From positions 1 to 48,034 of the IMG/VR virus record IMGVR_UViG_3300045012_000037: a DNA stretch of 48,034 bases; one strand, given 5' to 3'. This DNA comes from a virus. The notes below the pieces were generated by a model. The model saw only the letters and a list, made by a program, of their open reading frames with translations, was not told the origin of the DNA and did not search any database. A program made the position numbers and the translations under genes. The first letter of the stretch is position 1. Each line of letters starts with the position of its first letter. This document shows, piece after piece, positions 4,509-30,960 of the stretch.

Positions 4509-4895
4509 CTACCGCGATCCGCCAGTGTTCTTCTGGAGGTCTTTGATTTGCTGTTGCAGTTCTTCGATACGCTGATCCACAGTGTGACTAGGGGCCTTCT
4601 GCTGGTCCTGCTGCGCCGAATACAGCGAGGATTGGAGCTGCGACAGATAGATTTGATTGAGTGTCTGTGTGGTCTGCGCTTGCGCGATCAGGAGCTTTGA
4701 TTCAGTCTGCAACATGGGATCGGTTCTGCTCTGGATGGTCTCAAGCACAAACGTCTTGAGCGCAACGGGTTGCCAGTCGGCCAGTTTTGACATTGCGGGA
4801 CCAACGCCGACGATTGCCCCGCATAGGGCCGCAATAAGCGTAAAGACAGAGGTTGCCGTGCGACGCAGATTTGTGCTCCAAAACACAGTCCACAT
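4509..4895 (-). CDS. N-terminal TM plus Q-rich coiled-coil protein (i-spanin-like topology)
   Basis: GGGAGGA lies 6 nt upstream of ATG 4895 (the track start at 4910 overlaps that RBS). Product MWTVFWSTNLRRTATSVFTLIAALCGAIVGVG, then LQSSLYSAQQDQQ...ELQQQIKDLQ. Confidence 0.6.
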   Translation of the reverse strand: MWTVFWSTNLRRTATSVFTLIAALCGAIVGVGPAMSKLADWQPVALKTFVLETIQSRTDPMLQTESKLLIAQAQTTQTLNQIYLSQLQSSLYSAQQDQQKAPSHTVDQRIEELQQQIKDLQKNTGGSR

Positions 4896-4914
4896 CGCAC
4901 GTCCTCCCATCAGG

Positions 4915-5736
4915 TTAGAAGTCGTACCGGATGTACGCCTTGTACTGCGTGCCTATATTGGCGCTGGCGTTGAGCGTCAGTGGTGCACCGTTAGTGGCAA
5001 ACAGATTGCTGAACGTCACGCCGCGAGTCGGCCAGTCGACGGCAACGCCGAGATCGAGCGCGCCACCGTTCGGCTTACCCGTCGAGTCGATCGTTTGCCA
5101 CAAATAGCCGGTGCGGACGCCAGGGGCGACGCCAACGGACGTGCCAGCGCCTTGGGCGAGGCCGGTGCCGGTGATGCCGAACTCGGTCACAAACGCGCCG
5201 AAGTACTCGCGAGGTGTGGCGGCCACCATAGCAGCGGAAGGAAGTGCCTGCGTTGGATTAAAGGCCGGGAACGGATTGGCGATGCCAAGCCGTGTCATAA
5301 GCAGCGACACCAGGTCGGCGCCAACATCAACGCCCTGCATCGAGGACCAGCGCGAGGCCACCCCAAAGCTTGCCGCACCCGTAGTGGGGGTCGCAGAAGT
5401 ACTCACACCACCACTGATGTTCTGGAAAGAACCGCTGACATAAGCGCGCGCCCATTGGGCAATGCCCGCGATGGAGGCGTTTCCCCAGATGTAGCCGCCC
5501 TCGAGATCGATCGATTGGCCGGCCGCTGTCAGGTCGTTGCTGACAAGCGACGTGGCAAACACATTGTTGTTGACGTTGGTCTGATCGACTGCCGACGTGG
5601 TGCCGATGCCCCAATACCAACCCGAGCCGTTGACAGTTAGGAACGGGGTAGGCGCTGCCTTGACCGGCATGTCTGCAGCAAATGCCGGCAGTGCCAGCGC
5701 AGTGAGAACTGTGGTGAGCAGTAGGATTTTCTTCAT
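4915..5736 (-). CDS. outer-membrane beta-barrel protein (porin/Omp25-31-like), moron
   Basis: Signal peptide MKKILLLTTVLTALALPAFA/AD. G/T/S/A-rich alternating sequence. C-terminal YKAYIRYDF ends in Phe, as in a typical OMP beta-signal. GGAG RBS present. An 83-bp AT-richer spacer lies upstream. Confidence 0.8.
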   Translation of the reverse strand: MKKILLLTTVLTALALPAFAADMPVKAAPTPFLTVNGSGWYWGIGTTSAVDQTNVNNNVFATSLVSNDLTAAGQSIDLEGGYIWGNASIAGIAQWARAYVSGSFQNISGGVSTSATPTTGAASFGVASRWSSMQGVDVGADLVSLLMTRLGIANPFPAFNPTQALPSAAMVAATPREYFGAFVTEFGITGTGLAQGAGTSVGVAPGVRTGYLWQTIDSTGKPNGGALDLGVAVDWPTRGVTFSNLFATNGAPLTLNASANIGTQYKAYIRYDF

Positions 5737-5819
5737 GACGCGCGCTCCTGATGTGAATTTACACCTAGGGTTTTACTCCTAGAACGCGCGACATAACTGC
5801 AACACTCAGGATATATTTC

Positions 5820-6200
5820 CTAGCTTCCAATCGCGCCACCCGCTGCGGCAGGAGCCGCCACTGTGATTTTATTCCCAGGGATTGCGTCGGCGAGCGCGGC
5901 CGTCGCTGTTCCTGGCTTGGCAAGAACCTGCGCAATCTCCGGGTTTTTCTTCATGCTGATCAGCCTGGAGAATGGGCTTGCCGTCCACGCCGCATAGAGC
6001 GCGGACGCGACTGGAATCAACGTCGTAACGCCTGCGATGATCGAAGCAACGCCATCACCGATTTGATGAATGCCAGTGCCAAGTTTTGTTGCATCGCCTT
6101 GCGAGAGGCCGACGAAAACAAGAACCGCCGCAGCCGTTCCTGCGGCTGTGTAAACGTGACGTAGTGCAGCGTTGACCTGATCACTGGTTGGAAGTTGCAT
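5820..6200 (-). CDS. membrane protein, holin candidate
   Basis: AGGAGA RBS before internal ATG 6200 of track ORF 5820-6326. Hydrophobic segments AAGTAAAVLVFVGL and GVASIIAGVTTLIPVASALYAAW. Confidence 0.55.
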   Translation of the reverse strand: MQLPTSDQVNAALRHVYTAAGTAAAVLVFVGLSQGDATKLGTGIHQIGDGVASIIAGVTTLIPVASALYAAWTASPFSRLISMKKNPEIAQVLAKPGTATAALADAIPGNKITVAAPAAAGGAIGS

Positions 6201-6438
6201 CTGGTTTCTCCTGCACTGGTTTAAATGACACAATGCCACCCCACCAGAAGTGACAGCACAAAAAGCCTGTGAGGAAGCCAGCAATCCATGGGAATGGTGG
6301 GAAAGCTGCCGTAATGTCCCAAACAAAACGAGATAGCGTCGATGTATTCTCGTGAAGCGACCAGCCCTCCATCAAAGAGAAGCTGACAACTATCAGCAAC
6401 AGCCATACCGCCCATTTTATGCTGCCTTTGATCATCAT
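6181..6438 (-). CDS. membrane protein (two TM), holin/antiholin candidate
   Basis: ATGA overlap with the upstream 31-aa ORF. Contains WAVWLLLIVVSFSL and FPWIAGFLTGFLCCHFWWGGIV. Confidence 0.55.
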   Translation of the reverse strand: MMIKGSIKWAVWLLLIVVSFSLMEGWSLHENTSTLSRFVWDITAAFPPFPWIAGFLTGFLCCHFWWGGIVSFKPVQEKPDATSNQ

Positions 6439-6530
6439 GGCGTCCACACGATGTATGCGATGAGCATGATCAGAACGATTACCGTGATCGCGAAGCCAAT
6501 TCCGATGCGCTCGCCAAGGCTGCGGTTCAT
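6435..6530 (-). CDS. 31-aa single-TM peptide (tentative)
   Basis: ATGA overlap with the endolysin stop. MNRSLGERIGIGFAITVIVLIMLIAYIVWTP, which is the C-terminal part of track ORF 6435-6770. Confidence 0.4.
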   Translation of the reverse strand: MNRSLGERIGIGFAITVIVLIMLIAYIVWTP

Positions 6531-7114
6531 GATGTCTCTCGTGTGAAGGTCACAGATGGATCGAGTTTGCCAATCATCCACAACAGCGGCGCGCACCCCG
6601 GCTGCGGATCCATGACGGTTGAAGAATATTTGTGATCTGCCACCCATTTCCCCGGCATTTGGATATTGGTCCCGCCAAAAATGTACGAAGATGGTCGGGG
6701 CGGCGTCCATGCTTCCGTGCCGACACCATTGAACAGCAGCATGTAATAAAGCTGCTTTTCGACGCGCCAATCACTGATGGTGTCCCATTTCTCATAATGG
6801 ATCGCATCAACACAGCCGTCGATGAAGGCGTTGGGTCCAGTGAACGGGCCCCGATCTGCCGGAACCTCCGTTGTCTTTTCTGACAGCAATTGGCCGTTGC
6901 CGAGATAAGTATTGAATTCAGCATCACCTTCGCGGCGATGAATGCAGGCAATCATCTGCCACGGAATGCGAGTCTTGGATTCGACCACGCTATATGTAAA
7001 TTTGTTCTTGATCGCGTACTGCGCCTCGGTCGTGAATTCCTGCACACGACTAGCATTGATTGTCATGCCATCCCAATATTTGGCGTAGCGCGGCCAGATG
7101 TCGGAATATCTCAT
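6527..7114 (-). CDS. putative endolysin (lysozyme-like peptidoglycan hydrolase)
   Basis: 195-aa soluble protein heading a run of small membrane-protein genes. IACIHRREGDAEFNTYLGNGQ resembles prophage lysozyme-family proteins from memory. The call rests on position and this pattern only. Confidence 0.45.
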   Translation of the reverse strand: MRYSDIWPRYAKYWDGMTINASRVQEFTTEAQYAIKNKFTYSVVESKTRIPWQMIACIHRREGDAEFNTYLGNGQLLSEKTTEVPADRGPFTGPNAFIDGCVDAIHYEKWDTISDWRVEKQLYYMLLFNGVGTEAWTPPRPSSYIFGGTNIQMPGKWVADHKYSSTVMDPQPGCAPLLWMIGKLDPSVTFTRETS

Positions 7115-7130: not shown

Positions 7131-9002
7131 TCATTGCGCGCCCACCGACCAAGAAACTATCGTCGTCGCGGCGCTCGAAGAAGAAACCATTTTGACATCT
7201 ATGGCGGAACTCGCCGTCACACTGACGGAATGTGTTGTATCGCTACAGGCAAGCGCAGATGCGCCGCTTATCTGACAAGTTACCGAGCTATCAACGCCAC
7301 CAGTGCGCAGAGTGAAAGTGTAGGTTTGTCCGGCGCCGGGCGCTGTATTAACATTGACGTAAAATCCCGTCAGCGCATAATTAGCTGGGCTGATCATAAA
7401 ATAAATTTCACTGGTGCTGATATTAGCCAGCGATAAGTATTGAGTGCTATTACTCGTACTCGCTGTCGAACCATTGCCGCCAAAGATTGGCTTAACAAAG
7501 TTTCCAATATAGGCCCCACCCGAACCGGGGCCTGTGCTGATAAACATCTGGCCGAAGGTGCCAAGGCCGGTGCCCGTAGTATCGCCAGGGAGCACAGTAT
7601 TGGGATCGACGCTAACGCCGGTTTTGCCGCAGAAAAGCGTCGATGTAGCATCCACGACATATCGCTTGGTGCTAGCTGCAAGAGAACCTGTGAACGTAAT
7701 GTCTTGACAGTCGATGATGCCGCCCTGAGTGGCAGTAGCAAACTGACCGTTCATATTTGGCGTGCCGACAATCGTGACTGGCGAGGCTGTCGTTTGCCAG
7801 ATCACGGCACCGCCGGTTACTGCATCAACGAAGCCGCCCGCGCTACCACCGTTTATCGTAAATGGGTTGTTGATAAACTCGATGATTGAATTTAGATCGG
7901 CAACGAGCTGTGGATTGCCAGAAACGCCGCCATAGCAATTGCCATCCAGCGCTATCCACGACAATGCGTCGGCTGTAACCTTAGCATCGATCTGAAAGTT
8001 TGTTACCGTCCAAGGAACCGAAACACCGACAGAAGTGATGCCGCTCGTTACCGTTGGGTAGTTTGTGCATGACGACGAGATCGTTGCCGCACCGCGCACC
8101 ACAACAGACTGCTGGCCAATACTTCCTAGATAACCGAGATATTTACAAGCGCTGAATCCCGTATAACTTCCGGTGTAAGTTCCGGCATCGCTGCCATCGA
8201 CTAGGACTGTGTGGCCATTGAGATCGTAATTGTCACAAATAACATTGGCAGCTTTTTGTAGCGTTAGAAATGGCGCCCCGGAAGTCAGGCCGCTGTTGCT
8301 GTCGGAGCCCGTAGAACCATTGACGTAAAGCGTGAGATTGACATTCAGTTGCGTGCGCGAAAGTGCTGGACCCGGCAGATAGGTATTGACATTTGTACAG
8401 ATCGGATTGACGCCGCTGATGTCAAAACCTAATAGGCTATTTTCGCATACGGCCGGCTGCGGCATCGCGCCAGTCGTGATGCCGGGCTGAAAGAATAGGC
8501 CGCGACCGGTCAGATCATTAGTCTTGTCCCAGAGCTCGCGCGTGATGGCGCGATCCTCGGTGAAGCGCTGATTGAGATCGCGCGCCGCAACGCCACGGTT
8601 TTCCTGAAACTGCGATAGCTGCCGCGGTCGCTCGGCGCCGACGATTTGAATGGTCGCCGTCTGTGGGCTGGTGAACGTCAGTATCGCATCGGTGATCGGC
8701 CGCGGGATGGTCGACAAAGAGCCGGTAGGACTGGTCAGGCCCCAGCCATAGGTTGGGTCGGTCGACAATTTGCGGACGCCATTGACCCAGACCTGAATCC
8801 ACGAATCAACATCGTTGCCCGTGCCGTAAAGCGCCATATTGACGGCGCACGCACAGGTCGATGTGCTAATGCTATAGGCTGTTCGGCGCTCGGAATCCGG
8901 CAGCGCCGGGACTGCGGGGGGCGCCTGCGCAATGGCCGCCAGTGGACTCAGGGCGGTCCACAGTAGCCCTATCGCGGCGATGGTCCGGCGCAGCGGCTTC
9001 AT
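7131..9002 (-). CDS. tail fiber/tailspike: T7-type N-terminal adaptor pattern plus beta-helix-like body, with signal-peptide-like N-terminus
   Basis: Syntenic with T7 gp17, directly after the gp16-like gene. Residues about 40-160 end in ...RDLNQRFTEDRAITRELWDK, like the fiber N-domain. GSTGSDSNSGLTSGAPFLTLQKAANV is a pectate-lyase-fold-type motif. N-terminus MKPLRRTIAAIGLLWTALSPLAAIA/QA. Confidence 0.7.
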   Translation of the reverse strand: MKPLRRTIAAIGLLWTALSPLAAIAQAPPAVPALPDSERRTAYSISTSTCACAVNMALYGTGNDVDSWIQVWVNGVRKLSTDPTYGWGLTSPTGSLSTIPRPITDAILTFTSPQTATIQIVGAERPRQLSQFQENRGVAARDLNQRFTEDRAITRELWDKTNDLTGRGLFFQPGITTGAMPQPAVCENSLLGFDISGVNPICTNVNTYLPGPALSRTQLNVNLTLYVNGSTGSDSNSGLTSGAPFLTLQKAANVICDNYDLNGHTVLVDGSDAGTYTGSYTGFSACKYLGYLGSIGQQSVVVRGAATISSSCTNYPTVTSGITSVGVSVPWTVTNFQIDAKVTADALSWIALDGNCYGGVSGNPQLVADLNSIIEFINNPFTINGGSAGGFVDAVTGGAVIWQTTASPVTIVGTPNMNGQFATATQGGIIDCQDITFTGSLAASTKRYVVDATSTLFCGKTGVSVDPNTVLPGDTTGTGLGTFGQMFISTGPGSGGAYIGNFVKPIFGGNGSTASTSNSTQYLSLANISTSEIYFMISPANYALTGFYVNVNTAPGAGQTYTFTLRTGGVDSSVTCQISGASALACSDTTHSVSVTASSAIDVKMVSSSSAATTIVSWSVGAQ

Positions 9003-9028
9003 GCCGAGGAGCCTTGGGCGGGGCTAGA

Positions 9029-9049
9029 TTCGCGCGCAACGCACGGTCC
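9029..9049. promoter_or_regulatory. conserved late-arm motif copy 1 (ATTCGCGCGCAACGCACGGTC)
   Basis: In the 87-bp spacer between the gp16-like gene and the fiber gene. The core ends 35 nt upstream of the fiber ATG 9002 on the minus strand. Confidence 0.6.
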
Positions 9050-9089
9050 CTATGCCGCTCAATCAGGCTACGGCAGCGGCGATAGCCCA

Positions 9090-15190: not shown

Positions 15191-15669
15191 CAGAATGTCC
15201 TACTGCCAGGAGCACCGGGTATAGCGCCTCCAATTCCTTTGAGGATCGAAGATGCTGCGCTTACGTCGCCGGATAGCAATGCATCGCTTGACGCCGAGCG
15301 CAGATAAGCCGCGTCGCTTTCGTCCTGCTGTGATTGAGCCAAGATGCTATCGACTTGGATATTCTTGCGCTCAGTTCCAATCTGTTCGGTGTAATCACGC
15401 ACCGCCGCGCCGGTCGGCGACGTTGGATCAGTGTGCGACGCAGCGCGAATAGCGTCTAATTGTCCTAATGTTATGGCTTGATTGCGCGTTAACTGCGCAT
15501 TGGTTTGCGTAGCTTTCAATTCGCCATACTGTGCAGCACGGTCTAGTTCTGCGGCCTTGTATTGATCGGCCGCAGATGTGCCCTTAGCGCTTTCCAGCGA
15601 ACCAAAGGCTGACAAGCCCATCGAGGCTAGCGACAGAGCGGATGATGCACCTCCTGATGGAACGCCCAT
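15190..15669 (-). CDS. small internal virion protein (gp14-like by position)
   Basis: 159 aa, A/S/G/Q-rich. 1-nt start/stop overlaps with both neighbours. Confidence 0.5.
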   Translation of the reverse strand: MGVPSGGASSALSLASMGLSAFGSLESAKGTSAADQYKAAELDRAAQYGELKATQTNAQLTRNQAITLGQLDAIRAASHTDPTSPTGAAVRDYTEQIGTERKNIQVDSILAQSQQDESDAAYLRSASSDALLSGDVSAASSILKGIGGAIPGAPGSRTF

Positions 15670-18602: not shown

Positions 18603-19349
18603 CTAGCCCGGAGGACCGCCTGGGCCGCCCCAACCGCCGATACCTGTCCGCGGCCATGGGCGGCGTATCAGGCGGGACGCGCTGATGCGCGGGTTGAAGA
18701 ACTGCCGTTTGGGCAATTGCTGGTCGTAGCGCGTGCGGGCCATTTGCAGCATGCGCTCGCCGGCCATCCACATCTTGTCGCCTTCGGCCGGATCCTCGTG
18801 CAGCCCGCGATAGATGCCGGACATGGTAAAGGACTGCAGGGCAAGGAGCAGCGTCGGCGTGCCGTTGGTGGAGTCGCACAGCGCCCCGGAATTGGAGATG
18901 TATTTGAGCGTGATGGCGGCCGGGATGGTCGGCGGGACGGTCACGGGCGGCGGGGGCGGGCCGCCAAGCGCATTGACCACAATCACAGGGCCGGTCGGCG
19001 TCCCCATGATACGGTAGAGCGTGAACTGATTGGTCTGGACGTTCTGCGGGTCCGTCGTATCCTGATTGATCTTGAGCCAGATGATATGCACGCAGTCGGC
19101 CGGGATTGGATAGGCTGTGTCGTAATCGGTATCCTGCGGCGGGGTCGGGCTCGGCTGCAGCGTCACAACCAGGGCGGCATAGCCCCAGCCGTGGCTTTCC
19201 ATGGCGAAGCCGAGGCCGCGGTCATAGGCCGGCGAGGCTACGTTCCACTCGTCCGAACCGTCATCGGCCACGTTGACGAAGTTGTCCCCGGTTGCAGCCA
19301 GGGCAGAGTTAATCAGGCTCAGCTTGTCGAGTGGCGCCGGGAATGCCAT
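18603..19349 (-). CDS. tail tubular protein A (T7 gp11-like adaptor)
   Basis: Directly upstream of the gp12-like gene. INSALAATGDNFVNVA parallels T7 gp11 NEMLSAVGESPVNTL. Confidence 0.65.
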   Translation of the reverse strand: MAFPAPLDKLSLINSALAATGDNFVNVADDGSDEWNVASPAYDRGLGFAMESHGWGYAALVVTLQPSPTPPQDTDYDTAYPIPADCVHIIWLKINQDTTDPQNVQTNQFTLYRIMGTPTGPVIVVNALGGPPPPPVTVPPTIPAAITLKYISNSGALCDSTNGTPTLLLALQSFTMSGIYRGLHEDPAEGDKMWMAGERMLQMARTRYDQQLPKRQFFNPRISASRLIRRPWPRTGIGGWGGPGGPPG

Positions 19350-19376
19350 GCTCGACGGTGCGCTGGGGTCGCCAAA

Positions 19377-19393: not shown

Positions 19394-19407
19394 AGGAAAG
19401 CCGCCAA

Positions 19408-20064
19408 ATGCTCAGAAGCGCCCTCAAAGCGATGATTCCCGAGCCCGTTCTAACGAAATTACGGAACGTCAAACTAGCATTCACGCCACATGATAAAATC
19501 TATAATGAACACTATTTTGAAGAAGAAGTTATAGATACCTCAAGTATCGGAGCGCCCATTATGTCCAGCACGCTCTACGATTGGAGGCGCCCAAAAACGG
19601 TCATCGACATTGGATGCGGAAGCGGGGCACTACTCGCTGCATTTCGCGAATTAGGCTGCGAGGTAGAGGGCTTTGAATACGCCAACGTAGGACTAGCCTA
19701 TTGCCGAGGTCGGAAAATACCCACGGAGAAATTCGACATTTCTGTCGATAGATTTCCTCAACGTCGAGCTGACCTGGTTGTAAGTTTCGAGGTTGCCGAA
19801 CACTTGGCGCCACGATACGCAGACCGATACGTTGAGCTGCTTTGTTCGATGTCAGCGGATATTGCCATGTCTGCTGCAACGCCAGGACAAGGCGGTACTG
19901 GGCATATCAACGAGCAGCCGCATTCATATTGGATCGAGAAGTTCAGGCAACGCGGCTACTTTTTCCTAGCCGATATTTCGCAGAAATTATCCCAGGAATG
20001 GTGCGACGCTAACATTGCATCGTGGTACTGCAATAACGTGATGGTCTTTTCTCCGCGATCTTAA
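19408..20064 (+). CDS. class I SAM-dependent methyltransferase (non-DNA type), opposite-strand moron
   Basis: Motif I VIDIGCGSGALLAAFRELGCEVEGFEY, then VVSFEVAEHL and GHINEQPHSYWIEKFRQRGY. GGAAAG lies 7 nt before ATG 19408. The track start at 19273 would overlap the tubular A gene. AT-richer than its surroundings. Confidence 0.75.
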   Translation: MLRSALKAMIPEPVLTKLRNVKLAFTPHDKIYNEHYFEEEVIDTSSIGAPIMSSTLYDWRRPKTVIDIGCGSGALLAAFRELGCEVEGFEYANVGLAYCRGRKIPTEKFDISVDRFPQRRADLVVSFEVAEHLAPRYADRYVELLCSMSADIAMSAATPGQGGTGHINEQPHSYWIEKFRQRGYFFLADISQKLSQEWCDANIASWYCNNVMVFSPRS

Positions 20065-22907
20065 GGTATGACCTCGATAATAAGTTGGTCAGCGGCAATC
20101 GAGAGCGGCACGGAGCTTACGCTCGAATAGGTATTGATGGGCGTACTCTGCACTTGCGGATCATACACATTCACAGTGGTCTCGGTGGCAGCTAACGTCA
20201 GGGTAGCCGAAGTGGTCGGCGGCGTCACGTCAGAGCCATTCCACACGCTGGGTTCGTTCCAGACGCAAATGAAAAAATGGCCGTTGGACTTCTGCAGCAA
20301 AAGAGCCTGAGCGCCGAAATTGTTAAGCGCATTTGAGTGCGCCGGGAATGGAGAGATAGAATAAGTAAGCGAGCCGGGCGTGAACGCGCCACCAGTATCG
20401 GTCAGAATGGTCACTAGGTTCTTGATCGAGGTCGCGGCAGTCTTGGGATTATTATTATAATCAAACAGCCCGTAGTGGTGGAAAGATACAGTATCTGAGC
20501 TGTTGGCTTCATCGATCAGCTCGTACATATAAGTATATTTCGACCCGACAACGACATACATATCGAACAGGTCGTTCAATTGCAGCAGTGATTGCGCCAG
20601 TTGCGAAATGCCGCCTGTGGCGGGCACCGTGTAATAACCAGTCTCGGTCACTGCTTGCGGCAGACCGGCAATATCGCTTGCGGGGCCGGCGACCCAACCC
20701 GGCTGCTCGCCCTGATTGGGGTAGTAATGCTGATTGTTGTAGTCGGCAGTACCGGTGACACCGTATGATGGAAAGTCGGTGAAGTTAATCACCGGGACGC
20801 CGGTCAGATGCGAGTCACCATGGGTCTTGTTATAAATGTCCTGCTGCCAAGCGATAGCGGGCGCTGGATTGTTGTAGAAAGCTATGAATCGCGTCGCATC
20901 GCCGTTGCCAACGCCGGCCCCCTGGACGTTCGACGCCATCGTGACAGAGGTTGAGGCGATGGTGCTTAAGGTGGTGACCGGCGCGATCGGAAACACTGCG
21001 CCAGAGGTCAGCACCACGGCGTCAGCAATCCCCGCCTGCGCTGTGCCGACCGTGTTTGGCCCCAACGGAACCGAAAGGCTGCTTTGTGTGCTGGTAAACG
21101 GTTGAATCTCGACCAGATCGCCATCGTTGCCCCAGAGATTAGAGACAAAATCGCCTGTCACACCAGCAATGGTGCCAGCAACGGACACGAAGTTCTGAGC
21201 AGCCTGTGAACTATTGTTGCCCGTCTGCCGATAGCACCCGATGACAACCGTATTGGCGTGGGTCGTCGTAATCGTCAGCGGATCGGAAGTGCCGGTAACT
21301 GCACTGCCGTCGAAAGCGCCCGTGCTTCCGATCACACCGAAAGCATCAATGACCAGTGACGCGCTCGAAGTCTGCGAAACCGTAATGGTATCAGTTCGTG
21401 GATAGGAGCCACCGACTGGTCCCGTCGCGGTCCATTCCTCAAGATCGGTTGCTCCCGATGACGCGCTGGCCCGCTTTGCCCAACTTAAACTCTGGGTGTC
21501 CGTAATAGTAGTGACGGGTCCGCCGCTCGCCGCTGTGCAGATCAGCAATTTTTCGGCACTATTGTTGATCGTAAGTACAACATTCTGCGATGTAGCAGGA
21601 GAGGACGCCGCAGCGTGAGCATTGCCGGAATCAATGATAGTCGGTAGCAGCGTCAGGTCAGAGACTATTACCTGATTGACAAAGAATGGCGCATAAGACT
21701 GACAGCACGCATTGATCGCTTGCAACGCCGGAAGCGTCGAGGCGTAGTGCAGGGTAGCATTGCCAGAGGCAGTTGTGTTGTTCGTGACCGGCGAATTGAC
21801 GTAGCAGGACGGATTGTTGTTCAGCTCGTTGATGCCTTCGGCCGACGCCATCGCGCCGGGGTAAGTCGTAACAAAGGTGTCAATCAAGCCGTAAAGCGTA
21901 GTCAGTGTCGCAGCCGGACTTGGTGAGCAACCGCCAACGTGCTGTGATGCGATGTCAAAATCGAACTTATATCCCGCCGCCGCCAGGGTGTTGTAAACTG
22001 ACTGAGCTGGGTTGAGTGTGTCCAACCCATAGTCTCGGATCAGGCCGATCCCGAGATAGGCCATATCGGTCTGTATATTCGCTTCCGTGTAGATTGGATT
22101 GCCCTGAGTGATGTGCGTATTTGCACCCAGAGAAGCAATGAATGGCTGTGCCTTGACGGCGTTCGGATTGAATACATAAGGCTGATTGCCGCCGCCGTTG
22201 CCGGGGTTGGTCCAATTGGCAAACCCCGATGGAGCAACATCGGCATATGCCGTTGCGCCAAAATTTGCTGTTAATTGAACGCCCGAGATATTGTGAACGG
22301 AGGCCATGACAAAATATGGCCCGGCATTAAGTGCCGCAATCGACACGCCACACCCTGCATTAGCCGGCGTACAACCGCCCGTATTATTCCAGTTACCGCC
22401 ATGAACGCGAAACCATGCCAGCTTGTTAGTCAGGTCAACAGCCAGACCGGCCGTTTGACCGACCGTCATGGTCTGCTGCGCAGGGCCAACTTGAGCAGAA
22501 TTAAGAACGATACCACCACTATCGTACTCGCCAATACTGTTGTTTGAATCAACGCCCAATTCCTCGGCGGCATTGGCATTGCCGATACCAAAAATGACCT
22601 GACTAGTGCAACCGGAGACGCAACTGCCAATCGAGTTAAAGGTGAATTCGTTGTAGAACTGTCCTGTTAAGTTATTTGCCACCGAGCGGGTGACAAAATA
22701 TCCGGGGTTGCCGCTGCCTAGTGACGTTGAAGTAAGATTTCCGTTGGAAAGAACTGTCAGCGGGTCAGTTTGGCTAGGATCGAAGGTTGTTGTTACTGTG
22801 CCACTGGGTATTTTGCCGTGATCCCAGCCACACAGAAGGACCAGTGCAATGGAACCGATTGCGATATTTTTGCTTAACAAGCGGCCGGAGTGGAATGGAA
22901 ATATCAC
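20061..22907 (-). CDS. large exported/anchored protein: SPRY-like lectin domain plus possible TIM-barrel glycosidase region plus beta-rich C-terminus
   Basis: GTGA start/stop overlap at 22904-22907. N-terminus MIFPFHSGRLLSKNIAIGSIALVLLCG. SPRY pattern LSNGNLTSTS...GQFYNEFTF...LAVDLTNKLAWFRVHGGNWNN...LTANFGATAY. The later AEGINELNN is a clan GH-A-like NE motif (weak). Confidence 0.75.
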   Translation of the reverse strand: MIFPFHSGRLLSKNIAIGSIALVLLCGWDHGKIPSGTVTTTFDPSQTDPLTVLSNGNLTSTSLGSGNPGYFVTRSVANNLTGQFYNEFTFNSIGSCVSGCTSQVIFGIGNANAAEELGVDSNNSIGEYDSGGIVLNSAQVGPAQQTMTVGQTAGLAVDLTNKLAWFRVHGGNWNNTGGCTPANAGCGVSIAALNAGPYFVMASVHNISGVQLTANFGATAYADVAPSGFANWTNPGNGGGNQPYVFNPNAVKAQPFIASLGANTHITQGNPIYTEANIQTDMAYLGIGLIRDYGLDTLNPAQSVYNTLAAAGYKFDFDIASQHVGGCSPSPAATLTTLYGLIDTFVTTYPGAMASAEGINELNNNPSCYVNSPVTNNTTASGNATLHYASTLPALQAINACCQSYAPFFVNQVIVSDLTLLPTIIDSGNAHAAASSPATSQNVVLTINNSAEKLLICTAASGGPVTTITDTQSLSWAKRASASSGATDLEEWTATGPVGGSYPRTDTITVSQTSSASLVIDAFGVIGSTGAFDGSAVTGTSDPLTITTTHANTVVIGCYRQTGNNSSQAAQNFVSVAGTIAGVTGDFVSNLWGNDGDLVEIQPFTSTQSSLSVPLGPNTVGTAQAGIADAVVLTSGAVFPIAPVTTLSTIASTSVTMASNVQGAGVGNGDATRFIAFYNNPAPAIAWQQDIYNKTHGDSHLTGVPVINFTDFPSYGVTGTADYNNQHYYPNQGEQPGWVAGPASDIAGLPQAVTETGYYTVPATGGISQLAQSLLQLNDLFDMYVVVGSKYTYMYELIDEANSSDTVSFHHYGLFDYNNNPKTAATSIKNLVTILTDTGGAFTPGSLTYSISPFPAHSNALNNFGAQALLLQKSNGHFFICVWNEPSVWNGSDVTPPTTSATLTLAATETTVNVYDPQVQSTPINTYSSVSSVPLSIAADQLIIEVIP

Positions 22908-23779
22908 GTCCACACTCCGATGTAGTCCCATGATACGGGAATGCCGTCTCCTGGTGACATTATCAACATACTATGATTCGCGTCTGATGCCGCCCCATTG
23001 CTGCCAGTCGCATAGCTAAGAGCAGCGCCGGTCTGTTCCGCCCCATCGAGGTAACGCTTTATAACGCCATTCGTGGCGCCATTGGCCGGCAACCAGAGCG
23101 CTCCATACTTGTGAAAATTTGAATCTGAAATTCCGGTAATATTCCCGTTATTAAGCACCGAGGTCGTTGCCGAATTGAAAAAATGATCCTCCATTATTTG
23201 CGACTGACCTAGGTAATATTCATAACCATCGACCTCAACTAGAGAGGCGGCTCCGATTAAACTTTCGATCGCCAATAGCCACACGATAGGCCACGCAGAA
23301 GCGTCGGCATTGCTCGGCGTAAATGCCATACTCCATTCGACATACATCGGCGGCGTAAAGCCTTGTCCGACGTAAGACGATCCCGCGGCCTGGGCCGTCT
23401 GGACAAACAATTCGGATGTCGCACCAGTGCTATTGCTTAATGTAACTACCGAGTTGCTGACGCTTATGCTTGCTGGATTAGTGCTATGACCGGAAGTTGG
23501 AATTAGCGGCGCGGACCCCCCGTACGGATTCATTATATTCGGCCATGCATTATTCAGATACCAGTTGTAGCCCGGGTTGCCGGTCTTGCTTAGATCAAAG
23601 GTATTGCTCGTCAAAAAGTGGTCGAAAAACACGATTGTGGATAACCCGTTAGCTGCGGCAATGGCTGGGATCGGAAGAATGCCATGTGAAAATGCATTTG
23701 CTGGGCTCACACCGCTACGAGGCAACCACAATGCGGGAGCGGCCAAACTCGCACGAAGAAGATTTCTTCGAGTGATCAC
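22904..23779 (-). CDS. GH16-like (ConA-fold) glycoside hydrolase with twin-arginine signal peptide
   Basis: GTG start abutting the upstream stop. Signal MITRRNLLRASLAAPALWLPRSGVSPANA/F. WPIVWLL and EVDGYE match the GH16 WPAFWxL and ExDxxE signatures. Confidence 0.7.
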   Translation of the reverse strand: MITRRNLLRASLAAPALWLPRSGVSPANAFSHGILPIPAIAAANGLSTIVFFDHFLTSNTFDLSKTGNPGYNWYLNNAWPNIMNPYGGSAPLIPTSGHSTNPASISVSNSVVTLSNSTGATSELFVQTAQAAGSSYVGQGFTPPMYVEWSMAFTPSNADASAWPIVWLLAIESLIGAASLVEVDGYEYYLGQSQIMEDHFFNSATTSVLNNGNITGISDSNFHKYGALWLPANGATNGVIKRYLDGAEQTGAALSYATGSNGAASDANHSMLIMSPGDGIPVSWDYIGVWT

Positions 23780-24469
23780 TTACCAATTTCCAAATCCAGC
23801 GGGGGCTGCATAGGTATAAGAGGTTGCGCCAAAGTTTGCCGTTATGGAGGCGACGGCGTTGTGAATGCAGGCGGCGGCGAAATATGGGGCCGAGCCCGCA
23901 GAAGAAATTGATACGCCGCCGGCCCCCGTTGCCGGATTTGCTGTGCCGCTACCGTTCCAATTGCCGCCATTCTTTCTTATCCACACCAACCCTCCACCAA
24001 TATCGAGCGCCTGATCTATCACGTCGCCGTTGGTAAAAGTAGCATCAGTAAGGAGCGAGACGTTGTTGATGTATCCGTGTGAGTCGTCCCAATAGCCGAA
24101 ACCATTAATATCGACGCCGCCAAGAAACACATTAAGAGACTCTGATGAATTTACAAAACCAATGCCGTTGGAGTAAGAGGCAAAGCCGTTGCTGGTGTTA
24201 ATCAAAAAAGAAGCAAATAACTTTCCAGTAGAATGCGATGTGATAGAGCGAGAAAAACTATAGGTCCCAGAGCCGTTGGCTGTAATAGTTAAGTTTCCAC
24301 CAGACAGTGTAATGGTATTTCCAGTGTTGGACGGATCGAATGTCGTAGTACCGCCGCCGCCACTAGGCGCTACGATCGAACTGCCGACGCCGGTCTGCGT
24401 CAGGTCTTGTGCGTGCAGGACACACAGCAGCCCAACCAGAAACAGGCCAGCGGCAATCACCCGCTGCAT
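23780..24469 (-). CDS. secreted SPRY-like lectin-domain protein
   Basis: Signal MQRVIAAGLFLVGLLCVLHA/Q. LSGGNLTITANG...GKLFASFLIN...GLVWIRKNGGNWNGSGTANP...ITANFGATSYTYAAPAGFGNW, paralogous to the N-domain of 20061-22907. Confidence 0.75.
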   Translation of the reverse strand: MQRVIAAGLFLVGLLCVLHAQDLTQTGVGSSIVAPSGGGGTTTFDPSNTGNTITLSGGNLTITANGSGTYSFSRSITSHSTGKLFASFLINTSNGFASYSNGIGFVNSSESLNVFLGGVDINGFGYWDDSHGYINNVSLLTDATFTNGDVIDQALDIGGGLVWIRKNGGNWNGSGTANPATGAGGVSISSAGSAPYFAAACIHNAVASITANFGATSYTYAAPAGFGNW

Positions 24470-25302
24470 CAGTTATATCCGAATGTGCAGTTGATCGTGT
24501 TCGTTGCCGGTGCGGCCGCCCCCTTTGGCGTCGTGGTAGCCGCCGCACTCATCGCCGTGCCAAACTGCATGCCCTGCAGGTTCATCACAAAGCCGTTCGA
24601 CAGGCTTGGGGCGATCGGGATGACTTGCAGCGGCACCGTGGTTCCAACCGTGACCGACCCAAACGCCACGTTGAAAATCTGAATGTAGGTCCAGGCGGCA
24701 TTGTTGTTGTCGCATTGTGCGAAGCCGAGTTGACCGCCCGACGACTTGATCGCCTGTGCCGCATTGGTCAGAGCCGTTACCAACAGCGGCGTCCAGCCGC
24801 CTGTTGTGCCGAGTGGCGGCGGGCTGTTAATTGCGTTTGCCGCGGCCTTGGCGATCGCGGTCAACGTACAGGCTGTCGCAGTAGCCGGCAATGTGCAGGG
24901 CGAATCTGTTGTCGATCCCTCAACCGTGTTGGAGCCGTTGGCGATAGAGATTGCCGCTGTGTTTGTGATGAATACATTGGCGCCTGGAACGAGTACGGCC
25001 CCAGGTGACGTGCCGTAATTTGCCATCGCTCCGAGCGTGCCACCAGCCCATGTCGTATTCCAAAGCGCGGCAGAAGCCGGATCGACAAGTTGACCATGCG
25101 ACGTGTCGACACCGGCGCCGTTTGCGCCGGCCGAATAATCCCAGATCGTATTTTTGCCCAGGCAATTGCCGCTGCCGTCGACCACAGTGCCGATATTCTG
25201 AGATGTGCCGCCCGCATCCTTGCCAGTGATTGGCGAAGGACAAGCGGCAAATGCCGGCCAGCAAAGCAGCGTGAAGCCGAGCGCAAGGAGAATGCGCCTC
25301 AT
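24469..25302 (-). CDS. secreted or lipoprotein-type T/G/A/N-rich protein
   Basis: ATGA overlap with the upstream stop. MRRILLALGFTLLCWPAFAA/CPSP is a possible lipobox or an AxA site. Six Cys after the hydrophobic core. Confidence 0.7.
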   Translation of the reverse strand: MRRILLALGFTLLCWPAFAACPSPITGKDAGGTSQNIGTVVDGSGNCLGKNTIWDYSAGANGAGVDTSHGQLVDPASAALWNTTWAGGTLGAMANYGTSPGAVLVPGANVFITNTAAISIANGSNTVEGSTTDSPCTLPATATACTLTAIAKAAANAINSPPPLGTTGGWTPLLVTALTNAAQAIKSSGGQLGFAQCDNNNAAWTYIQIFNVAFGSVTVGTTVPLQVIPIAPSLSNGFVMNLQGMQFGTAMSAAATTTPKGAAAPATNTINCTFGYN

Positions 25303-25511
25303 GGAATTACTCCATTGATGAATTGCGGCATGTTGCAGCCGGTGGAGAGAGACAGATCGATTGCCCCTGCAGTGCATGGCGTGCCGACGATGACCGTCCC
25401 GCCGCCGCCGGACCCGCCGCCGATGCCCTGATTGCCGCCGATCGATTGTGCGAGTGCATGCGCTGTCCAGACTGACGCGGCAAACAATGCGAATGCGATG
25501 GCCCAGTTCAT
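25299..25511 (-). CDS. 70-aa secreted Gly-rich peptide precursor
   Basis: MNWAIAFALFAASVWTAHA/LAQSIGGNQGIGGGSGGGGTVIVGTPCTAGAIDLSLSTGCNMPQFINGVIP, with two Cys. Confidence 0.65.
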   Translation of the reverse strand: MNWAIAFALFAASVWTAHALAQSIGGNQGIGGGSGGGGTVIVGTPCTAGAIDLSLSTGCNMPQFINGVIP

Positions 25512-25512
25512 G

Positions 25513-26007
25513 TCAATTCTGATGCGTTTGTACAGTCGTTTCCAGATTGACCGCCGTGCAGGTTCCTGCCGTCATGGCAAATGCCACATAATCGCCGGCG
25601 GTGATCGCAGCCGAGTTGACCGTGCCGTCGACTACGGTTCCGGCTGCAGCAACGGTCACAGTTCCGATTGTGACGGGGCTCGATGCGCAAGTTGTCGACG
25701 TGCCGCACTCGAACACCGTTATGGTTGGATTGACCGAACACGTAAACGTGTTGGCGCTGCCCTCGATGTTGTCGACAGTCGTCGCCTTGCTGAATTTGTG
25801 AAACGCGCTTTTCGTGGCATTGATCGCCGTGATCGGACCGGTCTGAAAGCCGATGTGGTCGGTGGCGTTGTTGGCAATCGTTCCGCCCGAGCAGGTCAGA
25901 CCGGCGCCGCAGCCGAACAGGGCGCCATTGGAAATGCCGTCCGCAGCCAGCGGAGTGACCAAAGCCAGCAATGCGAGTGGGGCGATAATCCTACTGATAA
26001 TCTGCAT
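25513..26007 (-). CDS. secreted Cys-containing beta-rich protein
   Basis: Internal ATG 26007 of track ORF 25513-26160. MQIISRIIAPLALLALVTPLAA/DG. Six Cys in the mature part. Confidence 0.65.
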   Translation of the reverse strand: MQIISRIIAPLALLALVTPLAADGISNGALFGCGAGLTCSGGTIANNATDHIGFQTGPITAINATKSAFHKFSKATTVDNIEGSANTFTCSVNPTITVFECGTSTTCASSPVTIGTVTVAAAGTVVDGTVNSAAITAGDYVAFAMTAGTCTAVNLETTVQTHQN

Positions 26008-26368
26008 ACATCGTGTCCGAATTTGAGGCGCACGTCGCCTGGATGACATCGGACGGAACGTATGGGTAATAGCGCTGGTAGCTGCCGCCCGGAGACAACA
26101 AAATGGATGTTGCCTTTGTCGCGCTGCCAGATCCGATGAACAGCCAGCAATTGTCGCCATTGGTATTGTTGTTCTGGATAGTCAGCGAGCGCCTGATAGC
26201 CGGCGGCGCGGCAACAGCACTGAGTATGTTCTGATATGTGTTGCCGGTCGTGATCGTAACTGAGCCATTGATGGTTGGCGTATTGGTCTGCGCGTTCGCG
26301 ACAGGCGCAAAGAAAAGCGCTGCGGCGATAACCGCAGCGCGAGTTAGCCATGATCGATTCGCAATCAC
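25991..26368 (-). CDS. secreted beta-rich protein
   Basis: GTG 26368 preceded by GGTGGA and located after the stop of the upstream gene. (M)IANRSWLTRAAVIAAALFFAPVANA/QT. Two Cys. Confidence 0.6.
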   Translation of the reverse strand: MIANRSWLTRAAVIAAALFFAPVANAQTNTPTINGSVTITTGNTYQNILSAVAAPPAIRRSLTIQNNNTNGDNCWLFIGSGSATKATSILLSPGGSYQRYYPYVPSDVIQATCASNSDTMYADYQ

Positions 26369-26388
26369 AGCGGGAGGTTCCACCTGGC

Positions 26389-27006
26389 TTAGAAGTACGA
26401 GTAGATTATCGTGATATTGATCGAGCCCGAATTGCACGCGGTATGGCACGCGACAAGCACCTGATCCGCAATCGGCGCACCGCCATTGACTTGCAGCCGC
26501 GTCAGCGACGCATCCTTCACGACAACAGTTGCGTTGGCGCCGAGCGCGACCGCCGAGGCAAAAGTCGTGGCCGACGTGGCATCGCCGATGTCGACGCCGC
26601 CAGTGATGGCGTTGCCTGCCGTCTCGGCAAGCACAACGTTCTGAATGACCGTATTGGCCGGCAGCGTGATCGTCGATGTCGTTGACGTGGTTGACGCCAG
26701 GATGCCGGTCTGGATCAGCGTGAAGATATTTGGGCCGTAGAAGTAGCCTTGCGACAGGAAGTAGCCGACATCGCCGGAAGCGATAACCGCACAGCCATCA
26801 GCGTTGAGCTGATAGGCGGGCTGAGGCGTAGCCGTAGACGCCGAGTTGACAACACGCCTCGGTCCAGCGACGCCGGATGCTGGCTTAGGCGCGCACAAGA
26901 AGGCGTGAGCGGTCTGGGTCGACGCCGCCGCATAAGCGCCCTGCGGCACGATGAAGAAGGCGGCAATCGCTGCGGCGAGCAGGAATTGCGGAAGGCGAAA
27001 CTTCAT
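26389..27006 (-). CDS. secreted protein, possible small outer-membrane beta-barrel
   Basis: MKFRLPQFLLAAAIAAFFIVPQGAYA/A. Four Cys. C-terminus SINITIIYSYF has alternating hydrophobics and a terminal Phe (BAM beta-signal-like). Confidence 0.7.
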   Translation of the reverse strand: MKFRLPQFLLAAAIAAFFIVPQGAYAAASTQTAHAFLCAPKPASGVAGPRRVVNSASTATPQPAYQLNADGCAVIASGDVGYFLSQGYFYGPNIFTLIQTGILASTTSTTSTITLPANTVIQNVVLAETAGNAITGGVDIGDATSATTFASAVALGANATVVVKDASLTRLQVNGGAPIADQVLVACHTACNSGSINITIIYSYF

Positions 27007-28524: not shown

Positions 28525-29478
28525 TTAGGCGACGATCGGCGCGTTAGTCCACGAGTCCATGCGGCCGAGACAATACTTGTGCTCGTCCACCAAACCGATG
28601 TCCCAACTGATATGCGTGCGATAGGTCTTGCGGTCCTGCAGCAAGCCAACATCTTCCGGCGTCAGGTTGCGGACATAGATGCCGCGCAACATGCCCTCGC
28701 CCATGGTCAGGCCGTAGAGCGACGCGGTGACGGCCGAGCCGCCGCCGTTGCCGACCTCGTTGAATTGCAGCACCGGCTGCTGGTCGTCCTTCGGATAGCC
28801 CCAGAGCAAACGAAGCCCGGCATAGCTGATCTTCGGCATGCCGACCTCATCCCAGGTCTGCATCACGAAGCCACTCAAGGTCGTGGTGCGCGCCGCCTGA
28901 ATCCACAGCGGCAGCGAAATGAACGGCACGAAGATGTAGGTGGTACCGGACTTGCGCGAGATGTTGTTGAGGAACTGATCGAGATTGGCGAGCGAAAGCG
29001 CAGCGCCGCCAGATGTCGTCGAGTTGTGATAGAGCCGGCCGAACTTGCGGGCCCGGACTTGCAGGCCGTTGAACACGCGCGGATTGGTCGATTGGTCGCC
29101 CTTGACGAAAGTGTCGATCCACAGCCGCGCAAAGGCGGTGATGCCCATGCGTTCCTCGTAATTGCGCCGCTCCGAGCCGTGCCGATCCTGAATGGCGCGG
29201 TCCACGTCGATGTCGTGGTCGATGATGTAGGTCGCCTCGTCGAACGGCGTGATCGAGCCGTGGCCGCTTGAGGATGCTTCGTTGATGCCGCGGAACTGCG
29301 GCGTCGGCAGCACGGACTCGCGGAAGCCGACATATTTGGAACCGCGCAAGCCTTCAAAGGGCATGACCTCGAAAACGTCACTGTACTGCGTGAACATTTC
29401 GATGATGGTGCGTCGGATGTCCTCATTCGAGAACCCCTTGGCGTATTCGGTCAGGGTAATCAGATTGTTGACAGCCAT
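28525..29478 (-). CDS. major capsid protein
   Basis: 317 aa, follows the scaffold gene in portal-scaffold-capsid order. GAAGGG RBS. The long antisense ORF 28516-29271 is rejected. Confidence 0.7.
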   Translation of the reverse strand: MAVNNLITLTEYAKGFSNEDIRRTIIEMFTQYSDVFEVMPFEGLRGSKYVGFRESVLPTPQFRGINEASSSGHGSITPFDEATYIIDHDIDVDRAIQDRHGSERRNYEERMGITAFARLWIDTFVKGDQSTNPRVFNGLQVRARKFGRLYHNSTTSGGAALSLANLDQFLNNISRKSGTTYIFVPFISLPLWIQAARTTTLSGFVMQTWDEVGMPKISYAGLRLLWGYPKDDQQPVLQFNEVGNGGGSAVTASLYGLTMGEGMLRGIYVRNLTPEDVGLLQDRKTYRTHISWDIGLVDEHKYCLGRMDSWTNAPIVA

Positions 29479-30749: not shown

Positions 30750-30960
30750 TGTCAGCTATTCCCTTGCCCATGTGGGCCATCAGATCGGCCGCGAAACTGC
30801 GGCGACCCTCATTCGCGCGCAACGCACGTCCCGGCATGTTGGGCGTGGTGACCCCCAACCTGACCTTCTGCAAGTAGCGATAAAGAAGCTGGCCATCGGC
30901 GGTACGCGCGATGCGATCCATGACCTGCGTGATGTCGTCCGATGTGATTTCTTCGGTCAT
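30595..30960 (-). CDS. small protein downstream of portal
   Basis: 121-aa ORF. ATGA overlap with the portal stop. ...DGQLLYRYLQKV...RALRANEGRRSFAADLMAHMG looks protein-like. The 3-prime 155 nt overlap the scaffold ORF. Confidence 0.55.
   Translation of the reverse strand: MTEEITSDDITQVMDRIARTADGQLLYRYLQKVRLGVTTPNMPGRALRANEGRRSFAADLMAHMGKGIADSDRYAVTFAIAEPVDTRTHPRGARRRVTLDTAIAGWDTDANSGSGTSGSTN
30811..30831. promoter_or_regulatory. conserved late-arm motif copy 3 (ATTCGCGCGCAACGCACGTCC)
   Basis: 18-nt exact match to copy 1. 70 nt upstream of the scaffold GTG 30749, inside ORF 30595-30960. Confidence 0.55.

Follow-up and report, generated by a model that had tools for sequence, protein, structure and literature searches.

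How can a protein that has to dock onto a phage tail also carry a cleavable signal for export out of the cytoplasm? This question is raised by the tail-fibre gene of the virus record IMGVR_UViG_3300045012_000037 (IMG/VR), which lies at positions 7131 to 9002 of the 48,034-nucleotide stretch analysed here (positions 1 to 48,034 of the record; hereafter the window). An earlier note on this DNA had called an export signal on a docking protein paradoxical; the paradox is real, and the parity of the cysteines in these fibres sharpens it. Judged from sequence, export of the fibre, taken alone, is very probable. We give about an even chance to the whole chain of events proposed below, in which the fibre is a pre-protein with a cleavable Sec signal that would fold oxidatively in the periplasm and dock on fibreless particles at lysis. 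The virions of tailed phages are generally held to be finished in the cytoplasm, and a step of assembly outside it would, to our knowledge, be new for such a phage.

The Fibre Gene and Its Start Codon

The gene and the parts of its product are as follows.

7131..9002, minus strand: tail-fibre gene, assigned by synteny and homologues; sole T7-type fibre gene in the circular genome
9012..9015, minus strand: AAGG, a weak, putative Shine-Dalgarno-like motif 9 nt upstream of the fibre ATG
8928..9002, minus strand: residues 1-25, predicted Sec/signal peptidase I (SPase I) signal peptide with n-region KPLRR, h-region TIAAIGLLWTALS, c-region PLAAIA, and cleavage between A-I-A and Q
8904..8927, minus strand: residues 26-33, proline-rich arm QAPPAVPA, predicted mature N-terminus
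8493..8903, minus strand: residues 34-170, N-terminal adaptor domain of T7 gp17 type (beta-sandwich plus helix 140-162; CxC at C50/C52)
8373..8492, minus strand: residues 171-210, conserved neck with the Cys pair C186...C202 (P.P..C......FD..GLNP.C)
7488..8360, minus strand: residues 215-505, variable receptor-binding body, which opens with the YVNGSTGSDSNSGLTSGAPFLTLQKA cap motif; tailspike/beta-helix-like, 6 Cys
7134..7484, minus strand: residues 507-623, C1q/TNF-like jelly-roll knob with C576 and C586

The open reading frame (ORF) of 623 codons plus stop, encoding 623 amino acids (aa), was confirmed at 7131..9002 on the minus strand. An in-frame TAA (9092-9090), TGA, and TAG (all within 9092-9024) lie ahead of its ATG at 9002, and no other start codon intervenes. 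The 1329-aa gene upstream shares the reading frame of the fibre gene, and the gap between them (9003-9092) comprises 29 codons with the two further stops TGA and TAG; read-through from this same-frame gene is excluded by the three intervening stops. The next in-frame ATG, GTG, or TTG is codon 56 (M56, in 'CACAVNMALYG'), situated in a beta-strand region inside the folded domain, and a downstream start for a leaderless fibre was not found before it. The earlier statement that no alternative start precedes the adaptor domain is thus correct. Identification of the fibre by its position is likewise borne out, by the T7-like synteny and by a modular architecture with swapped C-parts and an N-part conserved to the degree of a core virion gene, and the two motifs quoted at that time (…FQENRGVAARDLNQRFTEDRAITRELWDK and GSTGSDSNSGLTSGAPFLTLQKAANV) are both present in the ORF. 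No promoter-like or terminator-like site was seen to separate the fibre gene from the late operon, and a moron-type unit was rejected.

Anatomy and Conservation of the Signal Peptide

The fibre begins with MKPLRRTIAAIGLLWTALSPLAAIA, followed by QAPP, and this N-terminus contains a basic n-region (K2, R5, and R6), an uncharged, hydrophobic h-region of about 11-14 residues, P at -6, and A at -3 and -1. The features of a Sec-type signal processed by SPase I are all found, namely a charged n-region, an uncharged h-region, a helix breaker with small residues at -3 and -1, and no Pro at +1. The full anatomy, together with its conservation across the family, supports the classical signal peptide read here by the earlier note.

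A search of 5.8 billion proteins yielded 308 homologues, which have the N-terminal ~200 aa in common at 55-77% identity and differ in the C-part. The leader was checked in the 120 homologues listed, all of which carry it, whole or partial. An anatomy of RR, ~11 hydrophobic residues, P, and A-x-A, cleaved before Q-A-P-P-P-V-P-A-L-P-D, recurs in about 200 homologues. When 114 homologues were registered on the conserved Q (+1) of the invariant mature arm QAPPPVPALPD, position -1 was A in 103, G in 8, and S in 3 leaders and position -3 was A in 76, S in 21, and V in 9 (106 together), an enrichment that is partly conditioned on the site-picking rule, with the register itself being fixed by the invariant arm. 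Other c-region columns show P at -4 (53 leaders) and F at -2 (67 leaders), and position +1 is Q in 103 of the 114 and otherwise A or D, never C. Columns -16 to -8 are hydrophobic, with a mean Kyte-Doolittle hydropathy above 2; R is modal at -18/-17, K or R is present in 110 leaders, and D or E occurs within the last 22 leader residues in only three. The median leader length is 22 aa. Column entropy amounts to 2.3-2.9 bits in the h-region, compared with 0.4-1.5 bits in the arm, whose columns are the most conserved of the family (Q26, P28, V31, P32, and A33 are nearly invariant). Thus, as is typical of signal peptides, the physical pattern of the leader is maintained even though its residues are free to change.

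The N-domain only (residues 34-170) was also run exhaustively with phmmer against 1.84 billion cluster representatives. It matched 614 of them at E<=1e-3, of which 378 reached E<=1e-30. Of the 150 best matches among the 614, 149 have the domain starting at residue 19-70, so that a leader is present. In IMG/VR, 52 loci were found, and the leader is present in all 50 with at least 49% N-domain identity except one (L036, described below). Whether relatives keep the extension had been suggested as a check on its reality: the near family does keep it, and the idea that relatives lack it fails there. Relative to the closest relative, L008, the synonymous/non-synonymous changes number 5/3 in the signal codons, 6/1 in the arm, and 39/47 in the domain; the ratio in the signal codons indicates that the leader is translated and under purifying selection.

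Other classes of leader were considered and rejected. A Tat signal is contradicted by RR in only 69 of the 114 leaders, many of which have a single K or R, and by the short, strongly hydrophobic leader. For a lipoprotein signal (SPase II), the lipobox Cys at +1 was never found in the 114 leaders. A signal-anchor-release (SAR) domain is an uncleaved N-terminal transmembrane segment of at least ~18 residues, rich in weakly hydrophobic residues (PMC6116005), and the h-region of ~11 residues, followed by P and A-x-A, is too short for it.

Cysteine Parity of the Fibres

In Gram-negative bacteria, exported proteins tend to have even numbers of Cys, reflecting disulfide pairing, and cytoplasmic proteins show no such tendency; an even-Cys bias is accepted as a marker of export and disulfide bonding (PMC7678975). 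Among the mature family fibres (n=202), 177 have an even and 25 an odd number of Cys and none is devoid of Cys (binomial p 2e-29, a value that overstates independence because the sequences are related). The variable, largely unrelated C-parts alone give 164 even and 27 odd, again with none at zero, and with one vote for each C-part cluster the counts are 80 even and 13 odd over 94 clusters (p 6e-13). Median Cys density is 1.75 per 100 aa in the family fibres versus 0.79 in ORFs without a signal. As a control, the ORFs without a signal from the same loci comprise 281 even, 366 odd, and 232 zero; the major capsid protein (MCP; 13 even, 46 odd), tail tubular protein B (10/11), tubular A (15/14), portal (26/31), and terminase large subunit (TerL; 24/16) were counted as further controls, with zero Cys in no case. 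An even bias is absent from the controls, and the fibres stand out clearly against them despite the overstated p-values. The other signal-bearing late ORFs, encoding the cassette proteins described below, are even in 98 and odd in 18 cases. In the window itself, the three internal virion proteins have no Cys in 2,191 residues, and the fibre has 12. The even-Cys signature suggests that export is functional.

Four N-region Cys (CxC at 50/52 and C186…C202) are conserved in most members of the family. A strict pairing of the signal with the CxC motif proved to be false, as several signal-bearing members have TGPF. Since some signal-bearing members lack N-domain Cys, disulfides in the adaptor itself would not be obligatory.

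Domain Architecture of the Fibre

The AlphaFold2 (AF2) model of the N-domain, built on a 96-sequence alignment, has a predicted local distance difference test score (pLDDT) above 90 at residues 40-120 and about 90 at 180-210, and residues 3-23 are drawn as a helix. When this model was compared with the PDB by Foldseek, 10 of the top 14 matches were fibre N-domains docked on podovirus tails. They include 9efk (E 1.3e-5), 8i4m, 8es4, 7y22, 8ck1, 7ey9, 7boz, 9vvr, and 8vbx, and the phages behind them are LME-1, P-SCSP1u, HRP29, Kp7, Carin-1, T7 (gp17), E1004, and PhiM1; the TM-scores are modest (0.26-0.48 on the target). In BFVD, 37 matches at E<=1e-3 were obtained for the N-domain, some of them named 'Bacteriophage T7 tail fibre protein'. 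By sequence, the fibre matches no Pfam family at E<=0.01 and likewise none of NCBIfam, and PHROGs gives only a weak match to phrog_32409 ('tail fiber'). The family profile compared with residues 1-192 of T7 gp17 by hhalign is not significant (probability 1.1%, E 0.047), although it aligns the exact stretch in which the earlier note had seen a T7-type adaptor. That assignment is accordingly supported by fold (Foldseek and BFVD) and not by sequence (no Pfam match, and the hhalign probability of 1%). Family profiles run against PDB sequences found no fibre, and the matches to tetrathionate hydrolase and UvrB were spurious.

In the neck, AF2 predicts a hairpin (E189-193/E200-204) with pLDDT of about 90, and C186 and C202 may form a disulfide.

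For the C-part (residues 215-623), only 15 homologues were found, with no Pfam match even at E<=1 and no NCBIfam match. The AF2 model (pLDDT 79) consists of many short repeated strands, and its Foldseek matches are the fibres of Agrobacterium phage 7-7-1 (9rkv, E 3.5e-7), the K2-2 tailspike, CBA120 TSP4, and Depo32; these tailspike matches have probabilities of 0.8-1.0 but TM-scores of 0.15-0.27 and large root-mean-square deviations. Some homologues with other C-parts match PF12708, PF13229, or PF05048. The cap motif 'YV..GSDSN.GL...PF.TLQ.A' is common to many fibre-like proteins. The knob is all beta in AF2 (C-part residues 293-408) and matches C1q, cerebellin, and ExsF chains at a Foldseek probability of 1.0. 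The pectate-lyase-fold beta-helix proposed earlier is thus supported only loosely, by the low-TM tailspike matches, and lacks a profile match, and the C1q-like knob had gone unnoticed.

The distal part of the fibre is also found outside the family. A signal-bearing protein of 589 aa (P0121; L136:2560-4329, Logan SRR14194057 contig) shares the whole fibre C-part at 44% identity and has a different N-domain. Its gene lies at the hot-spot of another podovirus, upstream of tail-tube-like and soluble lytic transglycosylase (SLT) genes. As P0121 shares the entire C-part, distal modules move between fibres of the gp17 slot and exported hot-spot proteins.

Relatives Without the Leader

The closest cultured relative is Microcystis phage Mwe-JY08 (PP395640.1), with an MCP 48% and a tubular B 33% identical. 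Its protein in the same slot has 980 aa, aligns through its N-terminus with the adaptor domain of the window at 31% identity, and opens directly with this domain (MSIQITQARDVTY…), without a leader. Gene order and N-domain motifs such as RPRR..Y/FQEGRGVPARDLN are the same in both phages; in contrast, the Mwe-JY08 fibre lacks a signal peptide as well as N-domain cysteines, and its 980 aa include just 3 Cys. A search with its N-domain for signal-less relatives gave only two matches, the metagenomic protein P0135 and the protein P0136 from a Microvirga metagenome-assembled genome (MAG), which are its only database relatives and are both leaderless. The distant IMG/VR relatives L055 and L056 are leaderless as well, and all these signal-less homologues (Mwe-JY08, P0135, P0136, L055, and L056) begin 5-8 residues before the shared domain. 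The leader appears to be an add-on to an otherwise ordinary fibre.

One member of the leader-bearing clade, L036 (IMGVR_UViG_3300045282_000095, 9980 onward), has no leader in any frame. Its fibre begins with MPSPVAVPALPD, no more than one residue away from where the mature protein is predicted to start (QAPPPVPALPD), which is as expected if cleavage between A-x-A and Q yields a functional adaptor. In this fibre TGPF replaces CxC and the Cys count is odd (9).

Several further observations were made on these relatives. The kinship of the Mwe-JY08 fibre N-domain to the Microvirga MAG protein raises a thought about the true host of this phage. In the Mwe-JY08 record, positions 26190-27776 encode a tubular-B homologue (33% over 568 aa) where no coding sequence is annotated and the only feature is a tRNA-Gly. 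A signal-bearing fibre homologue, P0007, is encoded in a 511-kb chromosomal contig of an Alphaproteobacteria MAG (L002:9941-11683, CAVRVV010000004.1), ~4 kb downstream of an integrase and a primase/helicase and with no internal-virion genes upstream; this locus could be a satellite-like element with its own fibre or a decayed prophage. A single-sequence scan of genome contigs found only two loci.

Proposed Assembly Route and Rival Explanations

In the route that we propose, the fibre would be exported through SecYEG during late gene expression, and cleavage after A-x-A would expose Q-A-P-P-P-V-P-A-L-P-D. The fibre would then trimerise and acquire disulfides in the periplasm, and DNA-filled fibreless particles consisting of portal, tubular A, and tubular B would meanwhile accumulate in the cytoplasm. 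Holin, endolysin, and envelope disruption would merge the two compartments, whereupon the N-domain would dock at the tubular A/B interface and complete the virion. In T7, fibres are the last component to join, at the adaptor-nozzle junction, and the tail complex is stable even without them (PMC6702177), which suggests that fibre addition is separable. Late docking is plausible for this reason and because no promoter-like or terminator-like site sets the fibre gene apart from the late operon. The docking-at-lysis step is one that we infer, and tubular A and tubular B are the presumed docking site, carried over from T7 (PMC6702177).

Several points weigh against this route. Literature searches turned up no precedent in tailed phages for a fibre signal peptide, for docking at lysis, or for fibre assembly dependent on DsbA or the periplasm. 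The analysis is wholly computational, with a heuristic for scoring signal peptides, and the relatedness of the sequences behind the parity statistics is corrected only partly by the C-part clustering. No member of the clade is cultured, and the fibre had no tblastn match in 50,697 phage records. L036 presumably shows that the domain can work without export, and the signal-bearing L044 and L048 lack N-domain cysteines. Even-Cys parity could, moreover, be selected by oxidation after release and not in the periplasm; the lack of such parity in other virion proteins counts against this idea.

Partial or saturable export would offer another account, in which virions would be fitted in the cytoplasm with the unexported fraction and the exported fraction would be a free receptor-binding or depolymerising protein that clears or modifies surface glycans, blocks superinfection, and keeps progeny off debris. 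Signal anatomy and Cys parity fit it equally well, the many co-expressed signal-bearing late proteins could load the translocon, the C-parts are tailspike-like, and the signal-less L036 shows that cytoplasmic assembly of the domain is possible. We nevertheless consider it unlikely: a 25-residue hydrophobic leader would be retained on 18 chains per tail, right before the docking arm and domain, no internal start is available from which a leaderless form could arise, the strong conservation of cleavage site and mature arm speaks for function residing in the processed form, and the parity implies that the oxidised form is under selection. We see a somewhat slimmer chance that the protein is exported and is no part of the virion, being instead a fibre-derived secreted or periplasmic glycan-binding enzyme, whether an auxiliary protein active on carbohydrates or an exclusion factor that modifies the receptor, with adsorption left to the nozzle or another late protein. 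The late region does hold a cassette of signal-bearing lectin-/glycosidase-like ORFs, the homologue in L002 sits in a small integrase-primase element without tail genes, and the carbohydrate-active enzymes of soil prophages have reportedly been the subject of a study. In a non-virion enzyme, however, nothing would demand that a 170-aa T7-type adaptor be maintained at 55-77% identity when the C-part swaps freely; most loci have the gene in the gp17 slot, where an ORF of 747-1470 aa precedes it in about 30 of 52, no separate promoter or terminator signal is present, and the complete genome has no other, signal-less fibre candidate.

It is very improbable that the leader is no export signal at all but a structural or membrane-tethering cytoplasmic helix, a SAR-like anchor, or the product of a mis-called start. 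The AF2 helix at residues 3-23 would suit the helix or anchor, and SAR endolysins are examples of a non-classical fate for a hydrophobic N-terminal segment (PMC6116005). However, an h-region of ~11 residues, with R/K before and P plus A-x-A after it, is too short for a membrane span or SAR domain, and its sequence varies (2.3-2.9 bits) with the pattern kept, the opposite of a protein-protein interface. Moreover, three stops precede the ATG, with no alternative start available, and only the signal-bearing proteins display the even-Cys signature.

Wider Significance

Extended to the whole group, the proposal would be that virion assembly is split between two compartments throughout an uncultured clade of temperate soil podoviruses. 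Capsid, tail tube, and DNA would come together in the cytoplasm, and all host-recognition proteins, meaning the T7-type fibre and the signal-bearing hot-spot proteins, would be exported by Sec or Tat, folded oxidatively in the periplasm, and added at lysis; we put this forward tentatively, as somewhat short of an even chance. The clade is large (614 clusters at 50% identity) and no one-off oddity. An exported receptor-binding fibre would add a new step to tailed-phage assembly, and if the proposal is true, it would explain the use of disulfide-stabilised fibres in some phages, with disulfide-stabilised fibres for a soil lifestyle as the likely pay-off. Sec and Dsb would then be host factors for the infectivity of these phages, particles would be non-infectious until lysis, and fibre-like depolymerases would act on the envelope of the infected cell from within. 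The surface glycans of the infected cell may also be acted on before release, by receptor-binding or receptor-degrading protein that is periplasmic or free. In practical terms, annotation pipelines and predictors of receptor-binding proteins that discard signal-bearing proteins as 'non-structural' would miss such fibres, and their heterologous production would need periplasmic expression.

Comparison With Known Systems

Virion proteins with Sec signal peptides are known from filamentous phages, in which pIII and pVIII carry them and pIII is disulfide-bonded in the periplasm. Inoviruses are, however, extruded without lysis, whereas the phage of the window is a tailed double-stranded DNA phage with terminase, portal, and HK97-type capsid genes. 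Virion morphogenesis is completed outside the cytoplasm in the Acidianus two-tailed virus, which develops its tails extracellularly; this virus is archaeal and does not belong to the Caudoviricetes, and its released particle rearranges, with no separately exported subunit being added. Secreted and SAR endolysins (fOg44 Lys44, P1 Lyz, and R21 of phage 21) are translocated by Sec before lysis and wait in the envelope for a trigger (PMC6116005). Like the fibre as predicted here, they are late phage proteins sent across the membrane by host Sec, but they are lysis enzymes and no virion parts, and SAR segments stay uncleaved, in contrast to the short h-region and A-x-A site of the fibre.

With T7 gp17 (7ey9 and 7boz; PF03906) the fibre shares the slot after the internal virion proteins, the beta-sandwich-plus-helix N-fold, and the modular logic of a conserved tail anchor and an exchangeable distal part. 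It differs in having a 25-aa signal peptide and a Pro-rich arm before the domain, four conserved N-region Cys, an even, high Cys content, and a tailspike-like C-part with a C1q-like knob, and it has no significant sequence similarity to gp17. By structure, the nearest counterpart is the fibre N-domain of the portal-tail complex of LME-1 (9efk). In its fold, the C-part best matches the 7-7-1 fibres (9rkv) and the beta-helix tailspikes of K2-2 (8iqe), CBA120 (TSP4, 5w6h), and Depo32 (7vz3), from which it differs in the low TM-scores (0.2-0.27) and the lack of a Pfam beta-helix or pectate-lyase match in the target, a putative enzyme.

Genome Organization and Other Signal-Bearing Late Proteins

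The first and last 127 bases of the window (1-127 and 47908-48034) are identical, which indicates a circular assembly with a unique length of 47,907 bp; with this exact terminal overlap, the contig represents a complete circular genome and no prophage fragment. Its GC content is 57%, and no tRNA gene was found. A structural module in T7-like order lies on the minus strand inside a temperate genome, which also carries a DNA methyltransferase gene on the plus strand. The main features outside the fibre gene are the following.

46529-47902, plus strand: integrase
33345..34850, minus strand: TerL
30957..32585, minus strand: portal (PF12236)
between portal and MCP, minus strand: Pro-rich scaffold-like ORF
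28525..29478, minus strand: MCP (phrog_212)
after MCP, minus strand: two small conserved ORFs, then a ~7-kb cassette
20061..27006, minus strand: cassette of seven ORFs between capsid and tubular A, products nearly all with export signals
26389-27006, minus strand: p205, first cassette gene, right after the capsid genes; 205 aa, signal-bearing (cleavage between MKFRLPQFLLAAAIAAFFIVPQGAYA and A), 4 Cys
22904-23779, minus strand: ORF of 291 aa starting with MITRRNLLRASLAAPALWLP, a Tat-like twin-arginine leader; no Cys, no family match
18603..19349, minus strand: tail tubular protein A (adaptor; phrog_394, E 2e-12)
15669-18593, minus strand: tubular B (phrog_376), without signal peptide
15190-15669, minus strand: internal virion protein of 159 aa, without signal peptide
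13079-15190, minus strand: internal virion protein of 703 aa with SLT domain, without signal peptide
9090-13079, minus strand: internal virion protein of 1329 aa with LPD38 'polyvalent protein' domain (PF18857, E 1e-40), without signal peptide
4509..7114, minus strand: presumed lysis region with an unannotated 195-aa protein, holin-like ORFs, a 273-aa ORF, and a 133-aa N-terminally anchored ORF
6181-6447 and within 5820-6326, minus strand: two small holin-like ORFs with two transmembrane segments each
4915-5736, minus strand: outer-membrane-protein-like ORF of 273 aa with a classical signal peptide (MKKILLLTTVLTALALPAFA, cleaved before AD) and a beta-barrel look

The gene directly upstream of the fibre gene carries LPD38, and SLT sits one gene earlier, in the 703-aa protein. 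Related loci have the same gene order, with the gp17 slot occupied in most and the fibre homologue behind the large ORF in about 30 of 52, as noted above. No signal-less fibre candidate was found in the complete genome, in which all large non-core late proteins carry export signals.

The cassette keeps its position in relatives, and its content is hypervariable, made up of signal-bearing ORFs of which some reach 700-960 aa. In the window, one product has the Tat-like leader ITRRNLLRASLAAPALW, and a 956-aa protein, apparently lectin/glycosidase-like, combines a signal-anchor with an N-domain of lectin-like type; its N-terminus and a 229-aa protein have a lectin-like domain in common (phrog_10080). 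The only conserved cassette gene encodes p205, which is present in 45 related IMG/VR loci, has no family match, and might be a periplasmic partner of the exported fibres. The signal heuristic that flags the cassette products flags about 2 of roughly 35 other ORFs in the genome and almost no genes upstream of MCP in 26 related loci. Signal-bearing hot-spot ORFs are mostly missing from more distant relatives (MCP 48-58% identical). Since the beta-helix-like hot-spot protein of Mwe-JY08, like its fibre, has no signal, the switch to export looks lineage-wide for glycan-facing late proteins.

Following the fibre gene are the 195-aa protein and then small membrane proteins. The genes of 4509..7114 have no family matches, and their assignment to lysis is presumptive; a holin Pfam family (PF23987) is found downstream of the fibre homologue P0063. 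The 273-aa outer-membrane-protein-like ORF, downstream of the presumed lysis genes, has homologues at the same place in L005, L006, and L030, and it could be a moron or an envelope-disruption protein. On the plus strand, an ORF for a SAM-dependent methyltransferase (19273-20064; PF13489, E 1.7e-12) is wedged between tubular A and the gene of the 956-aa cassette protein.

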